Positions 13,413-23,380 of a stretch of 64,000 nucleotides of DNA are shown in pieces (position 1 is the stretch's first letter; the number at the start of each line of letters is the position of its first letter). The notes below the pieces were generated by a model that saw nothing but the letters and a program-made list of their open reading frames with translations, was not told the DNA's origin and did no database searches. The position numbers and the translations under genes were made by a program. This DNA is from Acidimicrobiia bacterium. GTDB lineage: Bacteria > Acidobacteriota > Vicinamibacteria > Vicinamibacterales > SCN-69-37. The stretch is taken from NCBI GenBank assembly GCA_045862915.1, contig BTVE01000010.1, positions 7,968 to 71,967 of the forward strand, written 5' to 3'.

Positions 13413-13979
13413 ATGACCGCCGCGGAAGAGGCCCAGGCCGCTGCGTTGATGCAGGCAGCACAGGGCGGAGACCAGACTGCATACATGCACCTGCTCGCGA
13501 CACTCACCATCGTCGCGCGGAGATTCGTGCGCCATCGTGCCGGCGCGACGACGTGGATCGACGATGCCGTGCAAGAGACGCTGATCTCCGTCCATCGCGC
13601 GCGTCACACATGGGACGGCACGCGTCCCTTTGCGCCCTGGTTCTACGCCATCGCCTCCCACCGCATCGTTGACGTGTATCGACGTGAACACCGGGTGCGG
13701 CTGCGCGAGGACGCGTCCGATCACCTGGAGGCGACCGCGTCTTCCCAGAACGTCGGCGACCCGGACGATGCCGTTGACATGGCGGCGGTGCACGCAGCGC
13801 TGGCTGCACTGCCGGCACGGCAGCGCGACATCGTGGAAGGCCTGAAGCTGCGGGAGGAATCGGTGAAAAGTCTGGCGGCCCGGCATGGGATGTCGGAGAG
13901 TGCGGTGAAGGTCATGGCGCACAGAGGCTACAAACGACTGCGAACGCTGCTGGGCGGGACGCCGGAGAACAGGTCATGA
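13413..13979 (+). CDS. ECF RNA polymerase sigma factor (SigF/ECF16-like by context)
   Basis: ORF from GTG 13404, ATG at 13413. Sigma-70 region 2 (DAVQETLISVHRARHTW..FAPWFYAIASHRIVDVYRRE) and region 4 (LPARQRDIVEGLKLREESVKSLAARHGMSESAVKVMAHRGYKRL). Confidence 0.9.
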   Translation: MTAAEEAQAAALMQAAQGGDQTAYMHLLATLTIVARRFVRHRAGATTWIDDAVQETLISVHRARHTWDGTRPFAPWFYAIASHRIVDVYRREHRVRLREDASDHLEATASSQNVGDPDDAVDMAAVHAALAALPARQRDIVEGLKLREESVKSLAARHGMSESAVKVMAHRGYKRLRTLLGGTPENRS

Positions 13980-14614
13980 GCCACGAACGACTGATTGCTG
14001 AACTTGTGGCGGATGTATCGCCGGTGACCCCGCTGCCGGCACCGCGCGTCCGTGCGGCCCGATGGATCCTCCTGGCAGTCGTGGCCGTCGGCGCGGCTGT
14101 CGCGCTGCGCGGCCTCCGTGACAACTGGCCGATGGCCATCTCCGATCCCGCCTTCGTGGTGACGACGGTGCTCGTCCTGGCGATTGGTGTCTCCGCCGCG
14201 ATGTTGACGATGGGCCTGGCCGTCCCCGGTGCTGTGAGCCGACCGTGGCTGCGGTGGATTCCCCCCGGCCTGCTGGTGGTGTGGTTGACGATCCTGCTCG
14301 TGGACGCCGCAATCGATGGTGCGCAGCTGACTCGGGGCGGGTGGGGCAGCAGCTGTCTGTGGAAGACGTGGGGCATCGGCGTCGGTCCCGCCGCGCTGTT
14401 GTTGACGATGGCGCGCAGTGCCACGCCACTCGACTGGCGATGGACGGCCGGCATGGCGGCCATTGCCGCGCTCGCGTTTGGTGTGCTCGGCACCGAGATG
14501 ATCTGCCCTGTGACCTCCCACGCCCACATCCTGACGTGGCACTTCCTGCCGGTAGCGCTGTCGTCAGCGGCGGTGTTTGGCGTTGTGGCTCTCTGGACGC
14601 GAAGCCGCGGGTAG
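13976..14614 (+). CDS. nrsF: NrsF-family (DUF1109) membrane anti-sigma factor
   Basis: ATGA overlap with the sigma gene. MSHERLIAELVADVSPVTPL is followed by six TM segments. Cys residues lie in predicted outer loops (SSCLWK, ICPVTSHAH). Confidence 0.8.
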   Translation: MSHERLIAELVADVSPVTPLPAPRVRAARWILLAVVAVGAAVALRGLRDNWPMAISDPAFVVTTVLVLAIGVSAAMLTMGLAVPGAVSRPWLRWIPPGLLVVWLTILLVDAAIDGAQLTRGGWGSSCLWKTWGIGVGPAALLLTMARSATPLDWRWTAGMAAIAALAFGVLGTEMICPVTSHAHILTWHFLPVALSSAAVFGVVALWTRSRG

Positions 14615-17292: not shown

Positions 17293-17314
17293 CCTGCACG
17301 CGGGACTGAACGAA
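17289..17314 (+). promoter_or_regulatory. ECF (sigma-F-type) promoter for the redoxin gene
   Basis: Perfect GTAACC-tgcacgcgggactgaa(16 nt)-CGAA. The -35 box overlaps the dps TAA. The CGAA box ends 8 nt before the ATG at 17323, implying a leaderless or near-leaderless mRNA. Confidence 0.6.
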
Positions 17315-17322
17315 AGGTAGTC

Positions 17323-18345
17323 ATGGTGCGATCCGTTCTCGGAGCATTGGTGCTCGCCGGTGGTGTGCTGCTGGCCTCACCGCAGCAGGCGCAGCAGGTG
17401 GATGTCACGACGCTTGGACCCCAAGTGGGCCAGCGCGCGATTGAGTTCCGGCTGCCGGATCAGCAGGGCCGGGCTCAAACGCTGGCCTCGGTTGCCGGGC
17501 CGAAGGGCACGATGCTCGTGTTCTTCCGTTCGGCGGACTGGTGACCGTACTGCCGCACGCAGCTGGTCGAGCTGCAACGACATCTCAAGGACGTCACCGA
17601 CGCGGGCTACGGACTCGCCGCGATCAGTTATGACTCTGTCGAGACGCTGAAAGCGTTTTCGGATAAACACAGCATCACGTTCCCGCTGTTGTCCGATGCA
17701 GGATCGAAAACGATTTCGGCCTGGGGCATCCTCAACACGGCGGCGACCGGGCGCACCGCGGGTATTCCGCATCCGGGCACGTTCATGCTCGATCGCAGCG
17801 GGAAGATTGTGTCGCGCTCGTTCGAGCAGCCGTATCAGGAACGCCGGAGCGCCACGAGCATCCTCTCGGTGCTGGCCAGCGCGACGCCGGGGCAGACCAC
17901 CACGCTCAAGGGTGGGCAGGCGACATTTGTGTTGTCGACCAGCGACGCCGTTGCGGCGGTCGGGCACAAGGTGACCCTCAGCGTGCGTGTGACGCCCGGT
18001 CCGAAGATGCATGTCTACGCGCCAGGCCAGAAGGGGTACATCCCGATCACGCTGACGCTCAAGCCCGATGCGGCCTTCAAGGCGGGCGCCGTTCGATACC
18101 CGGCGTCAACGACCTATCACTACAAGCCGCTGAACGAGACCGTGCAGGTGTTCTCGGCGCCGTTCACGCTCGCGCAGGACATTACGATCTCACTGGCGCG
18201 AGACGTCCAGGCTCGGGCTGCCGCTGGAGAGGTCCTCACGATTGCCGGCGAGCTTGAATACCAGGCGTGTGATGACACTGTCTGTTATCGGCCGGAAACG
18301 ATCCCGGTCGAATGGAAGGTGACGCTGAGCCCGATCGTCCGATAA
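17323..18345 (+). CDS. exported thioredoxin-fold redoxin (AhpC/TSA-like) fused to a DsbD-alpha-like domain; in-frame TGA at 17542..17544 (candidate selenocysteine, otherwise a pseudogene)
   Basis: ORFs 17323..17544 and 17689..18345 are in the same frame, and I find no other stop between them. Read-through gives FFRSADW-[TGA]-PYCRTQLVEL...TFPLLSD...GIPHPGTFMLDRSGKI, one continuous redoxin domain. This is followed by a DsbD-alpha-like domain ending EYQACDDTVCYRPE. Signal peptide MVRSVLGALVLAGGVLLASPQQAQQ. Confidence 0.6.
17554..17579 (+). other. SECIS-like hairpin downstream of the in-frame TGA
   Basis: CG-cac-GCAGC-uggucga-GCUGC-aa-CG. The 5-bp apical stem is at 17559..17563 / 17571..17575, with a closing CG/CG. 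The apical loop has GG at positions 2-3 and starts 19 nt after the UGA. Confidence 0.35.
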
Positions 18346-19706: not shown

Positions 19707-19810
19707 TCCCGCGCTGCAAGGGTTCGCGCTGACGCGCGTTCTCTATCTGCCGGCGACGTGTGTCACCGGCTGGTTCGGTGCGCACATTCGCGCGCCGGCG
19801 AGGCGTGGAG

Positions 19811-22800
19811 ATGATCAACTGGCTGCTGGATCGTTCGCTCAAATATCGCGGTGTCGTGCTCGGGGTGTACCTGTGCCTCGGCGTGTGGGGTTACTGGGCC
19901 ATGCGCACGGGGACGGTCGATGCCATCCCCGACCTCTCCGACCATCAGGTCATCGTCTTTACCGACTGGCCAGGGCAGAGCGCTCAGGAGGTTGAAGATC
20001 AGGTCACCTACCCGGTTGTGACCAACCTCCAGGGACTACCCGGCGTCCGTGTCGTTCGGTCCCAGTCCGCGTTCGGCTTCTCGATGGTCTACGCGATTTT
20101 TGATGATGACGTGGACCTGTATTTTGCGCGCACACGCGTGCTGGAACGCCTGAGCCTGGTCACGACTCAGCTGCCGCCGGGTGTGGTGCCCGTGCTTGGA
20201 CCCGATGCCACGGGCGTGGGGCACGTGTTCTGGTACACGCTCGACAGCGATCGGCATTCGCTTGCCGAGTTGCGCAGTCTGCAGGATTGGTTCATCCGGT
20301 ATCAGCTCAACGCCGTGCCGGGTGTGGCGGAGGTCGCGTCGGTCGGCGGAGACGTCCGTCAATACCAGGTCAATATCGATCCGGATCGCCTGCGTGGGTA
20401 CGGGCTGTCGATCGGCGACGTGGTGCGTGCCGTCCAGGCAGGCAACGCCAACGTCGGCGGCAATGTGCTCGACACCAACGGCGCGTGGGCCATCGTCCGG
20501 GGCGTTGGACTCATCGAATCCATCGAGGACGTACGCACCATCGTGGTGCGGGCCTCCGGCGGCGTGCCGGTGTACGTGCGCGACGTGGCGACCGTTGAGC
20601 TGGGTGCCGCCTTCCGGACAGGTGCGTTGCTCAAGGGTGACCGCGAGGCCGTCGGAGGCGTCATCGTCGCCAGAGCCGGTGCCAACGCACAGGAAGTGAT
20701 TGATGCCGTCAAGTCGCGGATGGCGCAGATCCAGCCAGGCTTGCCGGATGGCGTCACCATCCGCGCGTTTTATGACCGGTCCGAACTGATTGGACGCGCG
20801 ATTGAGACACTCCGCTTCGCGTTGATTGAGGAAATCGCCCTGGTGACGCTGGCGCACGTGATCTTCCTGATGCACGTGCGATCAATTCTTATCGTCACCA
20901 TTCCCCTGCCGCTCGCCGTGCTGATGTCCTTCCTGATGATGAAGTACCTCGGCATTTCATCGAACCTGATGAGCCTGTCGGGGATTGCCATCGCGATCGG
21001 TGTCCTCGTTGATGCCGGCATCGTCGTCACCGAGAACGCGTTTCGCACGATCGAGCAACGTGGCGTGCCGACGACGGATCGCGCCGCGGTCTGGTCGGCC
21101 GTGCGTGACGCTACCCGTCTGGTTGGTCGTCCGGTGTTCTTCTCGATGACCGTCATCGTGCTGGCGTTTGTGCCGGTGTTTGCGCTCACGGGGCAGGAAG
21201 GCAAGTTGTTCCATCCGCTCGCGTTCACCAAGACGTTTGCGATGGTGGCGGCCACGATGATGGCCGTCACGCTGGTGCCCGTGCTGTGCACGCTCCTGCT
21301 GGGTGGCCGCATGCACGCGGAGGAAGACAACCCGGTGATGCGTGCCGTACGCCGGTTGTATACACCCGTGCTCGCTTCAGCGCTGAGTCACAGGACCGCG
21401 ACGATGCTGCTGGCGATGGCGGTGTTCCTCTCGGCCGTCGCGTTGTCCACGCGCATCGGCAGCGAGTTCATGCCTGCGCTCGACGAAGGCGACCTGATGT
21501 TCATGCCGATCGCTGATCCGAGCGTGTCGCTCGACGAAGCCATGCGGCAGGCCTCGGTGCAGAACGCCGCCATTGCGGCGTTTCCCGAAGTGCGGACGGT
21601 CGTCGCCAAGGTCGGCCGGGCCGACACATCCACCGATCCCTCACCGGTGAACATGACCGAGACGATTGTCTCGCTCAAGCCGCGCGCGGAGTGGCGGGAT
21701 GGGATGACGCTTGAGACGCTCCGCGCCGAAATGGGCCGCGCCGTGCAGCTGCCGGGGGTGACCAATATCTGGACGATGCCCATCATCAACCGGATCGACA
21801 TGTTGTCGACCGGCATCCGGTCGGAGGTCGGCGTCAAGATCTTCGGTAGCGACCTGCGTGAACTCGAGCGGCTTGCGCGAGAGGTGGCTGCGGCGCTGCG
21901 GACCGTCCCCGGTGCCGCCAACGTGTACCCGGAGCCGGTCTCAAGCGGTCAGTACCTGAACGTGCGTGTCGACCGTGAAGCCGCTGCGCGCTACGGCCTG
22001 AGCGTGGCCGAAGTGCAGGCCACCATCGAATACGCCATCGGTGAGACACCGGTTGGACGAACGATTGAAGGGCGGGAGCGGTATCCCATTCGAGTGCGAC
22101 TCGACGAGCGGTTCCGCAGTGACGCCGGGGCCATCGGTCGAACACCGATCGTGAGTGCCGCCGGTCAGCAGATTCCGCTGAGCGAAGTGGCATCACTTGA
22201 GCCGACCCGGGGTCCGTCGATGATCGCGGCCGAAAACGGACTGGTCCTCGCGACGGTGCTGCTCAATGTGCAGGGACGCGACGTCGTGGGATTCGTGGAA
22301 GAGGCGAAGCGGGCCGTGGCGGAGGTCGTCGCCATGCCTGAGGGTTACTACCTCGGCTGGAGCGGCCGGTATGAAAACCAGCAGCACGCACGCGAGCGGC
22401 TGCGCATCGTGTTGCCCCTGGTGCTGCTGACCATCTTCGTGTTGCTGTATTTCACCTATCACTCGGCGGTTGAAGCGGCGCATGTGTTGCTGGCGGTGCC
22501 GTTTGCCCTCAGCGGCGGTGTCTTTCTCGTCTGGGCCCTGGGATTCAACTTCTCCGTCGCCGTCTGGGTCGGCTTCATCGCGTTGTTCGGCACCGCGGTT
22601 CAGACCGGCATGGTGATGGTCATTTATCTCGAAGACGCCGTAACGCGGGCACAGGCGGCCGCCGGTGATGCGTGGTCTCGTGCGCGGCTGCGAGATGCGG
22701 TCATGGAAGGCGCCCTGCTGCGACTGCGCCCGAAACTGATGACGGTCTCCACGGTGGTCGCCGGCCTGCTGCCGATCATGTGGAGCACGCGAACGGGTGC

Positions 22801-23380
22801 GGAAGTGATGCAGCCGCTCGCGGCGCCCGTGCTGGGAGGCATGGTGTCGTCCCTCCTGCATGTGCTCGTGGTGACGCCGGTGATCTTCTTCTGGATTCGC
22901 AGCCGGGGTCTGCCGGCAATAGACGACGTTGCGATCGAGAGCGAGCCACGTGCACGCATCCGACCGGCGGTGGTTGTGAGCCTGGCGCTGGTGTTGGCGG
23001 CGGTGGCCGCCTGGTGGTGGTGGCCGTCGGCAACGACGCTGGCGCCGACGGGCTCCGTGCTCCACGAGGTGCGTGCCGGCGATACGGTCGTGAGATTGCG
23101 TGTCGCTGAAGGGACGCAGGCTCTGGGAGTCGGCCGCAACACGTTCACGCTCGAGTTTGTCTCGCCAGATGGCGCGCCAGTCACAGTACGGGACGTCCGG
23201 CTTGCGGTGTCGATGGCGATGCCCGGCATGGTCATGACGGCTCCCGTCCAGGTCGCAGGGCAGGGCCATGTGTGGACCGCCACCTCGGAGTTCTCGATGG
23301 CCGGTGGATGGCGTTTTGTTGTTGAGTGGCTCGGTCCTGACGGGGCCGCAACCGCGTCGTTTGACGGAGAAGTGCGATGA
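19811..23380 (+). CDS. cusA: CusA/CzcA-family heavy-metal efflux RND permease with an extra C-terminal TM helix and periplasmic domain
   Basis: The ATG at 19811 gives [27 protein letters not shown] architecture throughout. About 150 extra residues follow the normal C-terminus. Confidence 0.95.

Follow-up and report, generated by a model that had tools for sequence, protein, structure and literature searches.

Within a 64,000-nucleotide stretch of contig BTVE01000010.1 (GenBank assembly GCA_045862915.1), referred to here as the window, positions 17323..18345 of the forward strand form a single gene of 340 codons, as judged from frame translation, and the sole interruption of its frame is a TGA at 17542-17544. 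Our analysis of this gene and its relatives leads us to conclude that this UGA very probably encodes selenocysteine (Sec). During translation, UGA74 would be read as Sec, with SelB and Sec-tRNA(Sec) being recruited by a hairpin located in the coding region at 17559-17575. Comparison of related sequences establishes the codon, the hairpin, the pairing of Sec and cysteine forms and the presence of the Sec-decoding machinery in relatives, and from these we infer that selenium is physically inserted in the source organism as well. The predicted product is an exported protein with two redox centres, in which a thioredoxin-fold domain carrying the Sec residue is fused to a domain resembling the alpha domain of DsbD.

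One reading frame across the UGA

From the ATG at 17323, 73 codons lead to the sequence ...FFRSADW, which is followed by the TGA (open reading frame (ORF) 17323..17544). Downstream of the TGA the same frame reads PYCRTQLVELQRHLKDVTDAGYGLAAISYDSVETLKAFSDKHSITFPLLSD (PYCRTQLVELQ...), and the next stop codon is only the TAA at 18343-18345. For the Pfam search the residue U of the window protein was written as C. Pfam AhpC-TSA then matched residues 35-163 (E 9e-31), accompanied by Redoxin, and DsbD_N matched residues 208-326 (E 1.7e-9). According to these domain extents, the TGA lies inside a single thioredoxin-fold domain, at the W-x-P-Y-C redox motif. The initial annotation of this stretch, made from its letters, had described a 73-codon ORF that ends at the TGA with its frame continuing free of stops, and had placed the TGA at the first Cys of WCPYC within one thioredoxin-fold domain; the translation up to the TAA and the AhpC-TSA match agree with it on both points. 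The features of the reading frame are as follows.

17313..17317, + strand: Shine-Dalgarno-like AAAGG, read from the sequence 5 nt 5' of the ATG; presumed role
17323..18345, + strand: complete predicted selenoprotein gene, 340 codons including Sec74, plus TAA; tblastn of relatives covers residues 1-340 across the TGA, with a ratio of nonsynonymous to synonymous divergence (dN/dS) of 0.03-0.3 on both sides
17542..17544, + strand: putative Sec codon UGA, residue 74, first position of W-U-P-Y-C; TGA in 63 of the 80 sequences of the family (window counted), TGT or TGC in 17
17551..17553, + strand: TGC codon of the resolving Cys77 of U-x-x-C; Cys is invariant at this position (codon +3, counted from the UGA) in 80 of 80 sequences

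DNA of relatives was taken from one genome per species of the GTDB. In total 390 relatives matched, and the best 80 were kept for a census of the codon; almost all of these are metagenome-assembled genomes (MAGs) labelled Acidobacteriota, Vicinamibacterales, 'Solibacteraceae' or Bryobacterales. In the best 80 of the 390 species-level relatives, which share 42-96% amino acid identity with the window protein, the aligned column of RSADW-x-PYC is TGA in 62 and TGT or TGC in 17, while one sequence lacks the motif. Thus, the alignment of homologues that had been proposed as a check shows TGA or a cysteine codon at this column. The full-length Cys orthologues P0001, P0002 and P0017 carry WCPYC. A search of 5.8 billion proteins returned dozens of relatives of 70-96% identity that had been called as proteins of 186-250 aa and span only the last 55-74% of the query; the same search found relatives of 45-66% identity at full length (335-360 aa), with WCPYC. 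In a neighbour-joining tree the TGA forms occur throughout the family, and the Cys forms fall into at least five scattered lineages.

Selection on the two parts of the frame was assessed by comparing the window with ten members of its clade over 48 codons before the TGA and 60 codons after it. On both sides dN/dS is 0.03-0.3, indicating strong purifying selection, and the synonymous divergence (dS) amounts to about 0.6-2.3 against all clade members compared except the near-identical L001. Both halves have therefore long been translated in one frame, and on this ground neither a recent nonsense mutation nor a sequencing error nor a pair of independent genes can account for the TGA.

The comparison with L001, whose protein is 96% identical, showed a peculiarity of its own over window positions 17398-17724. 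The 48 upstream codons encode the same protein but have a dS of 0.68, as compared to a dS of 0.047 for the 60 downstream codons; this sharp shift across the TGA suggests recombination within or near the gene. Six of the MAGs that bear the gene (L001, L013, L048, L060, L068 and L072) carry the record labels Acidimicrobiia, Phycisphaeraceae, Bifidobacterium, Woeseiaceae, Bifidobacteriaceae or Planctomycetota. These odd labels are probably binning or labelling errors and do not reflect horizontal transfer.

The hairpin downstream of the UGA

The 63 TGA forms were aligned without gaps (alignment A2) and analyzed with RNAalifold. Exactly one structure was predicted, a hairpin of 6 bp with a 5-nt loop, which we regard as the candidate bacterial selenocysteine insertion sequence (bSECIS).

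17559..17575, + strand: candidate bSECIS hairpin, stem 17559-17564 paired with 17570-17575, apical loop GGUCG at 17565-17569; RNAalifold

In the window the hairpin reads GCAGCU-GGUCG-AGCUGC, begins 14 nt after the UGA and has an energy of -8.9 kcal/mol, the spacing between UGA and loop being 20 nt. Across the TGA forms 99.5% of the stem cells are paired, as compared to 0-40% when the 3' arm was slid as a control. Two stem pairs show compensatory changes, from G-C to A-U in five sequences and from C-G to U-A in one.

As the stem at the same time encodes the peptide T-Q-L-V-E-L-Q, a fair test of its conservation has to be made at synonymous sites, with the Cys forms as control. In the Sec forms the codon entropy is 0.1-0.55 bit at codons +5, +6, +9, +10 and +11, with flanking codons at 1-2 bits. 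In the Cys forms it is 0.9-1.5 bits at +5, +6, +9 and +10, and codon +11 is always CAG. In the Sec forms there is perfect covariation between codon position 3 of Gln+6 and codon position 1 of Leu+10, with 58 G:C pairs, 5 A:U pairs and no mismatch; in the Cys forms four A:C mismatches were found among 17 sequences. Residue +8, whose GUN codon is the source of the GU in the loop, is Val in 100% of the Sec forms and Ala in 59% of the Cys forms. Similarly, Gln+11 is encoded by CAA in 87% of the Sec forms and by CAG in 100% of the Cys forms. The energy of the hairpin ranges from -6.5 to -10.1 kcal/mol in the Sec forms and only from -1 to -2.3 kcal/mol in the Cys forms. Thus, synonymous variation is suppressed in the TGA forms only, and the hairpin decays in the Cys forms.

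The consensus bSECIS model has an apical loop of 3-9 nt, a stem of 4-16 bp, a G in the first two loop positions, 16-37 nt between UGA and loop and a minimum free energy (MFE) of -7.5 kcal/mol or lower (PMC13188914, Fig. 2 legend). With its 5-nt loop, 6-bp stem, loop G, spacing of 20 nt and energy of -8.9 kcal/mol, the window hairpin lies within this model in every respect. The initial annotation had drawn a hairpin at 17554..17579, just after the UGA. A SECIS-type hairpin is indeed present there, but it extends over 17559..17575 and starts 14 nt after the UGA; the additional outer pairs C17554-G17579 and G17555-C17578 occur only in the window's own clade and not family-wide in A2.

The bases flanking the stem (17557-17558 and 17576-17577, columns 19-20 and 38-39 of A2) are also constrained in the Sec forms only. 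Thr+5 is encoded by ACG in 97% of the Sec forms, and the prevalence of CAA at Gln+11 (87%) stands against CAG as the default codon at high GC content. The unpaired nucleotides beside the stem may therefore be part of the recognition element of SelB.

Probable selenocysteine decoding and its alternatives

Flanking sequences around the loci of relatives, 1.3 Mb in total, were searched for the components of Sec decoding. Four of the 12 tRNA genes detected there by aragorn are tRNA-Sec genes, and all four were confirmed by Rfam family RF01852 at 74-77 bits (threshold 47). In L025, L037 and L042 no more than about 110 nt separate the tRNA-Sec gene from the end of the predicted selenoprotein gene, and selA, selB and selD come next. 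In L031 the sel cluster begins about 0.7 kb downstream of the gene, and tRNA-Sec is its most distant member, about 4.6 kb away. The encoded SelA proteins are 49-51% identical to E. coli SelA (E 1e-118 to 1e-129), the SelB proteins about 32% and the SelD proteins 40-43%. The close linkage to tRNA-Sec, selA, selB and selD in these four relatives suggests that the gene is a main client of the machinery there. The gene together with the Sec-decoding cluster occupies the following positions.

L025:10001-15593
L037:4848-10387
L042:10001-15541
L031:9488-15290

A further relative, L010, belongs to the clade of the window (72% identical) and has a selD gene 8 kb upstream (L010:1521-2436) with a TGA at the position of the catalytic Cys17 in E. 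coli SelD. As its SelD thus contains Sec, the L010 organism decodes Sec. In the MAG assembly this selD is apparently frameshifted near residue 175-195.

In the window TGA is the commonest ordinary stop, terminating 40 of the 52 reading frames that are open for at least 300 codons, and the genetic code is therefore not reassigned. The window was also screened for further selenoprotein genes. The scan listed 238 TGA codons flanked on both sides by 50 or more open codons, and the five most plausible of them were checked with Pfam; each of the five either is an ordinary stop upstream of a complete domain (DUF885, TAtT, DctM) or comes without any domain.

Several results weigh against the assignment of Sec. 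Neither tRNA-Sec nor selA, selB or selD was found in the 64-kb window by aragorn and by tblastn with E. coli SelA, SelB and SelD, and the window has no tRNA gene at all. The single-sequence fold of 17536-17605 is no better than that of shuffled sequences (z = +0.76), so that the case for the hairpin rests on comparative evidence and not on energy. The long outer helix of that MFE structure (GGUGAC with GUCACC) was discarded as a candidate, since it is not conserved in relatives. Rfam, applied with gathering thresholds over the window and with E values up to 10 over 17480-17680, reported no bacterial SECIS family, the matches in the latter segment being noise only (MIR5516, Twister-P5, E ~1). 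Moreover, the stem is short, and the palindromic peptide Q-L-x-E-L-Q accounts for part of it, the Cys forms keeping 3-6 of the 6 pairs, and the compensatory changes are confined to six sequences.

Against this background, three other readings of the TGA have to be considered. That it arose from TGC or TGT by a nonsense mutation, marks a pseudogene or is a sequencing or assembly error in a single record would fit with gene callers taking the TGA as a stop and with the lack of Sec machinery in the 64-kb window. However, the same TGA is present in 62 independent species-level assemblies and in many metagenome contigs, its flanks are under purifying selection with saturated synonymous divergence, and the SECIS-like hairpin accompanies TGA specifically and is lost in the Cys forms. 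The alternative named in the initial annotation, a change of TGC to TGA or a sequencing error, thus fails on saturated synonymous sites with a dN/dS of 0.03-0.3 on both sides, and we consider its probability close to nil. Normal termination at the UGA, with an exported peptide of 73 residues and a C-terminal protein that is initiated on its own, is also highly improbable. Internal GTG, ATG and TTG starts do exist downstream and are used by gene callers, but they are not conserved (GTG in some relatives is GTC in the window), the products called from them vary between 186 and 250 aa, and the downstream product would have neither a signal peptide nor an active site. Genuinely separate genes in relatives had been named earlier as evidence that would count against Sec; what the relatives have instead are Cys-form orthologues that are single proteins of 335-360 aa, and a break at the UGA would split the CxxC motif of one thioredoxin fold. 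Finally, the UGA could be decoded in another manner, by a code reassigned to Trp or Gly, by near-cognate read-through or by insertion of Cys via the Sec pathway. Read-through and misinsertion of Cys at UGA codons are known in general. Nevertheless, we regard such decoding as very unlikely here, given that TGA is the dominant ordinary stop of the window, that the position is a catalytic Cys in homologues, that a conserved, dedicated hairpin with bSECIS geometry is present and that tRNA-Sec, selA, selB and selD adjoin the gene in relatives.

Domains, possible function and relation to known systems

The protein with the proposed Sec74 is composed of the parts listed here; the signal peptide is of the general secretory (Sec) type, in which Sec does not stand for selenocysteine.

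17323..17397, + strand: predicted Sec-type signal peptide, about residues 1-25, MVRSVLGALVLAGGVLLASPQQAQQ; crude hydropathy scan
17425..17811, + strand: thioredoxin-fold domain, Pfam AhpC-TSA/Redoxin, residues 35-163, TlpA/ResA type; Pfam, Foldseek
17773..17775, + strand: Pro151 of the invariant GIPHPGTF, presumed cis-proline opposite the active site; alignment A1
17944..18300, + strand: DsbD-alpha/ScsB-alpha-like immunoglobulin (Ig)-fold domain, Pfam DsbD_N, residues 208-326; Pfam, AlphaFold2, Foldseek
18268..18285, + strand: second redox centre Cys316-x4-Cys321 (TGT...TGT) in Y-Q-A-C-D-D-T-V-C-Y-R-P; alignment

According to the crude hydropathy scan, an N-terminal stretch of 12 residues with a mean Kyte-Doolittle value of 1.8 or more is present in 71 of 80 family members. 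A basic residue precedes this stretch in most of the sequences listed, and a conserved mature start, VDVxxLGPQVG, comes after it. A full-length AlphaFold2 model was made on the Cys orthologue P0001 (63-66% identical) and reached a predicted local distance difference test score (pLDDT) of 89 and a predicted template modelling score (pTM) of 0.82, the N terminus having low pLDDT.

The thioredoxin-fold domain, with the active-site motif U-P-Y-C, matches PF00578 (AhpC/TSA) with 106.9 bits (cut-off 26). Its best matches among PDB structures in Foldseek are 4nmu together with ResA-type thiol-disulfide oxidoreductases and small peroxiredoxins, at template modelling (TM) scores of 0.71-0.79 overall and of 0.71-0.78 for 4nmu and the ResA structures. 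P149, P151, G152, T153 and F154 are invariant in alignment A1, and from general knowledge of the fold we take Pro151 to be the cis-Pro of the thioredoxin fold. Peroxiredoxins have a catalytic Arg where this thioredoxin-type proline motif stands. For this domain no NCBIfam cut-off was reached, neither that of any selenoprotein model nor those of the peroxiredoxin families (BCP 49.8 against 140, PrxQ 43.2 against 260, PrxU 24.4 against 270 and AhpC 23.9 against 272). The ResA subfamily NF002854 likewise remained below its cut-off (42.7 bits against 170). The peroxiredoxin signature P-x3-T/S-x2-C(U) is absent, as F-F-R-S-A-D-W-U has Ala at -3 and Phe at -7. Thus, the N-terminal domain resembles the class of TlpA/ResA-like oxidoreductases, with a selenol-thiol pair, and is neither a true peroxiredoxin nor a ResA proper.

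The C-terminal domain matches DsbD_N with 38.1 bits (cut-off 25). An AlphaFold2 model of the exact window residues 183-340 has a pLDDT of 94, and Foldseek ranks 1-3 among PDB structures are ScsB-alpha (6c29) and nDsbD (3pfu and 6dps). Searches of the PDB by sequence or profile gave no significant match for this domain, which was identified by fold comparison and Pfam only. Q314, A315, C316, D318, C321 and P324 are invariant across 66 sequences, and the C-terminal QACDDTVCYRPE is aligned with the catalytic pair of E. coli DsbD-alpha, YQGCADAGFCYPPE. The 340-aa protein comprises these two soluble domains only and has no transmembrane beta domain. Both the C-terminal DsbD-alpha-like domain and the Sec signal peptide had been recognized in the initial annotation; the former is supported by the DsbD_N match, the fold comparison and the invariant Cys pair, and the latter holds as a prediction by the hydropathy scan.

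As regards function, the product would be exported via its Sec-type signal peptide and would carry two redox centres, the selenol/thiol pair U74-P-Y-C77 in the TlpA/ResA-like domain and the pair Cys316-x4-Cys321 in the DsbD-alpha/ScsB-alpha-like Ig-fold domain. By analogy, it would most likely act as a periplasmic reductase module of the cell envelope. The alpha-like domain would trade electrons with a membrane transporter of the DsbD/ScsB/CcdA type encoded elsewhere and with the fused redoxin domain, and the exposed U74 selenolate would act as the nucleophile that rapidly attacks oxidised substrates in the envelope (disulfides or sulfenic acids). With Sec as the solvent-exposed nucleophile of the CxxC, exchange should be accelerated. 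Electron exchange between Ig folds and thioredoxin folds is known from DsbD-gamma to alpha, from alpha to CcmG, DsbC and DsbG, and from ScsB via TlpA to PprX (PMC3322552), and the substrate as well as the direction of electron flow between the two domains, as proposed here, are modelled on DsbD-gamma/alpha, DsbD-alpha/CcmG and ScsB/TlpA/PprX (PMC3322552). On the other side of the balance, donor, direction and substrate are taken from analogy only, gene neighbourhoods are not conserved among relatives, and tblastn with E. coli DsbD found a beta-domain match in only 1 of 80 loci, outside this gene, and no conserved DsbD or CcdA gene nearby.

A different function, which appears rather unlikely to us, would be that of a periplasmic selenoperoxiredoxin that reduces peroxides directly, like PprX, with the alpha-like domain as built-in reductant. 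The best Pfam and NCBIfam similarities of the N-terminal domain include AhpC/TSA, BCP and PrxQ, Foldseek also matches AhpE and BCP, and a Dps/ferritin gene lies directly upstream in the window. However, the signature P-x3-T/S-x2-C is absent (F-F-R-S-A-D-W-U), every peroxiredoxin equivalog cut-off is missed widely, the active site is of the W-C-x-x-C type as in TlpA and ResA, and the thioredoxin-type proline of the invariant GIPHPGTF occupies the position of the catalytic Arg, a point that draws partly on background knowledge of the fold. In Caulobacter, ScsB supplies a periplasmic peroxiredoxin (PMC3322552), but the peroxiredoxin-like PrxL of this organism is described in the same source as having no detectable peroxidase activity.

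The reductase module that we favour could, more tentatively, be a self-contained periplasmic selenol-thiol relay, i.e. a soluble 'gamma-alpha half' of DsbD in which a TlpA-like domain with Sec is tethered to a DsbD-alpha-like domain and selenium speeds the exchange both between the domains and with the substrate. It might also be a principal reason why Vicinamibacterales-type Acidobacteriota keep the Sec machinery, because the gene stands directly beside tRNA-Sec, selA, selB and selD in several genomes. If true, this would be an undescribed selenoprotein architecture, abundant in soil and systematically mis-annotated as two ORFs.

The genes around the predicted selenoprotein gene in the window are the following.

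13976-14614, + strand: NrsF-family gene, putative anti-sigma factor, upstream; Pfam NrsF in L087 and L084
16846-17292, + strand: Dps/ferritin-family gene, with its 3' end 30 nt before the predicted selenoprotein gene; called as a ferritin of 148 aa in Logan contig L087, which matches the window; NCBIfam Dps E 1e-18
19760-23380, + strand: CusA/CzcA-type heavy-metal efflux pump of the resistance-nodulation-division (RND) type, downstream; NCBIfam TIGR00914, 1097 bits

The NrsF and RND pump neighbours hint at a metal or envelope-stress setting. The Dps/ferritin gene points to a possible link to oxidative or iron stress and is not conserved in the other relatives examined.

In all three relatives for which gene calls were read (NCBI, JGI, Logan), the gene is split into an ORF of 72-73 aa without a Pfam match and an 'AhpC-TSA/DsbD_N' ORF of 186-250 aa that starts at an arbitrary internal codon.

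L084:9731-10753, split orthologue
L086:9734-10753, split orthologue
L087:3459-4481, split orthologue

Public names given to relatives are 'redoxin domain-containing protein', 'peroxiredoxin', 'DsbC/DsbD-like thiol-disulfide interchange protein' and 'hypothetical protein', and no curated NCBIfam model covers the family. Our results should therefore be helpful in correcting a systematic mis-annotation, since the UGA forms are split in every public record examined into a 72-73-aa 'hypothetical' protein and a truncated 'redoxin' or 'DsbC/DsbD-like' one. The family is widespread among the Acidobacteriota of soil. Relatives are encoded in about 390 species-level genomes of the GTDB, and 62 of the best 80, almost all labelled Acidobacteriota, carry the UGA. 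Because lineages with Sec alternate with lineages with Cys in the tree, the family amounts to a clean natural experiment, from which one can read directly what Sec costs and brings and how a bSECIS restricts codons as well as amino acids. Overall, an exported two-centre redox enzyme would be added to the bacterial selenoproteome, in a phylum with few recorded selenoproteins; the addition is widespread but unsurprising and leaves the understanding of Sec decoding itself unchanged.

When compared to known systems, the closest class is that of the peroxiredoxin (Prx)-like thiol:disulfide oxidoreductase selenoproteins with UxxC or UxxU (PF00578), which have been listed since 2004, with WP_010940744.1 of Geobacter as exemplar (Kryukov and Gladyshev 2004, as listed in PMC13188914, Table 1, and PMC1794560, Table 1). 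Shared with them are the AhpC/TSA thioredoxin fold, Sec in the first position of UxxC, the existence of Cys homologues and a coding-region bSECIS just after the UGA. Unlike them, the window gene adds a DsbD-alpha-like domain with an all-Cys pair and a signal peptide, and it is found in Acidobacteriota (Vicinamibacterales and relatives). It is thus a member of the Prx-like UxxC selenoproteins at the level of the class, and orthology with WP_010940744.1 is not implied. DsbA-like, DsbG-like and thiol:disulfide interchange selenoproteins of the periplasmic type are listed as well (PMC13188914, Table 1; PMC1794560). The sole DsbD-related entry of the 2026 review is the rhodanese/DsbD fusion TsoB, and Acidobacteria are not mentioned there (PMC13188914); in the 2006 census three selenoprotein families were recorded for Acidobacteria (PMC1794560). 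In the literature on PF11412 or Vicinamibacter together with selenocysteine, we found no description of the redoxin-DsbD_N architecture as a selenoprotein.

With TlpA, ResA and CcmG the window protein shares W-C-x-x-C, the thioredoxin-type proline motif and the extracytoplasmic location, ResA-type proteins being the best Foldseek matches. These proteins are themselves reduced by DsbD-alpha or CcdA. In contrast to them, the window protein has Sec in place of the N-terminal Cys and an alpha-like domain that is fused and does not act in trans, and it is presumably soluble, with a cleavable signal peptide, and not membrane-anchored. DsbD and ScsB have in common with it the Pfam domain DsbD_N, a Cys pair aligned with the catalytic Cys103/Cys109 of DsbD-alpha, and ScsB-alpha and nDsbD as top Foldseek matches; as with gamma and alpha of DsbD, a thioredoxin-fold domain and an Ig-fold domain with a Cys pair are combined in one polypeptide. 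However, the order in the window protein is thioredoxin fold followed by alpha-like domain, the pair is C-x4-C and not C-x5-C, and the thioredoxin-fold domain is of the AhpC/TSA type with Sec and not of the DsbD-gamma type. As it has no transmembrane beta domain, the protein cannot itself import electrons, unlike DsbD and ScsB.

The candidate bSECIS shares with those of E. coli fdhF and fdnG and with the bSECISearch consensus a coding-region hairpin directly after the UGA, a loop with G followed by G or U, a spacing within 16-37 nt and the constraint that it places on amino acids (Val+8 being obligatory). The fdhF element comprises about 40 nt, as compared to a much shorter candidate hairpin in the window family, which has neither a conserved bulged U nor a conserved lower stem. 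The initial annotation had called an exported U-x-x-C oxidoreductase fused to a DsbD-alpha domain unusual. This has to be qualified with respect to the UxxC selenoproteins of the AhpC/TSA type, which have been known since 2004, and it stands for the DsbD-alpha-like fusion and the Acidobacteriota family. Thus, this kind of protein is already familiar, and what appears to be new is the combination with a DsbD-alpha-like domain, along with the family in Acidobacteriota as such.

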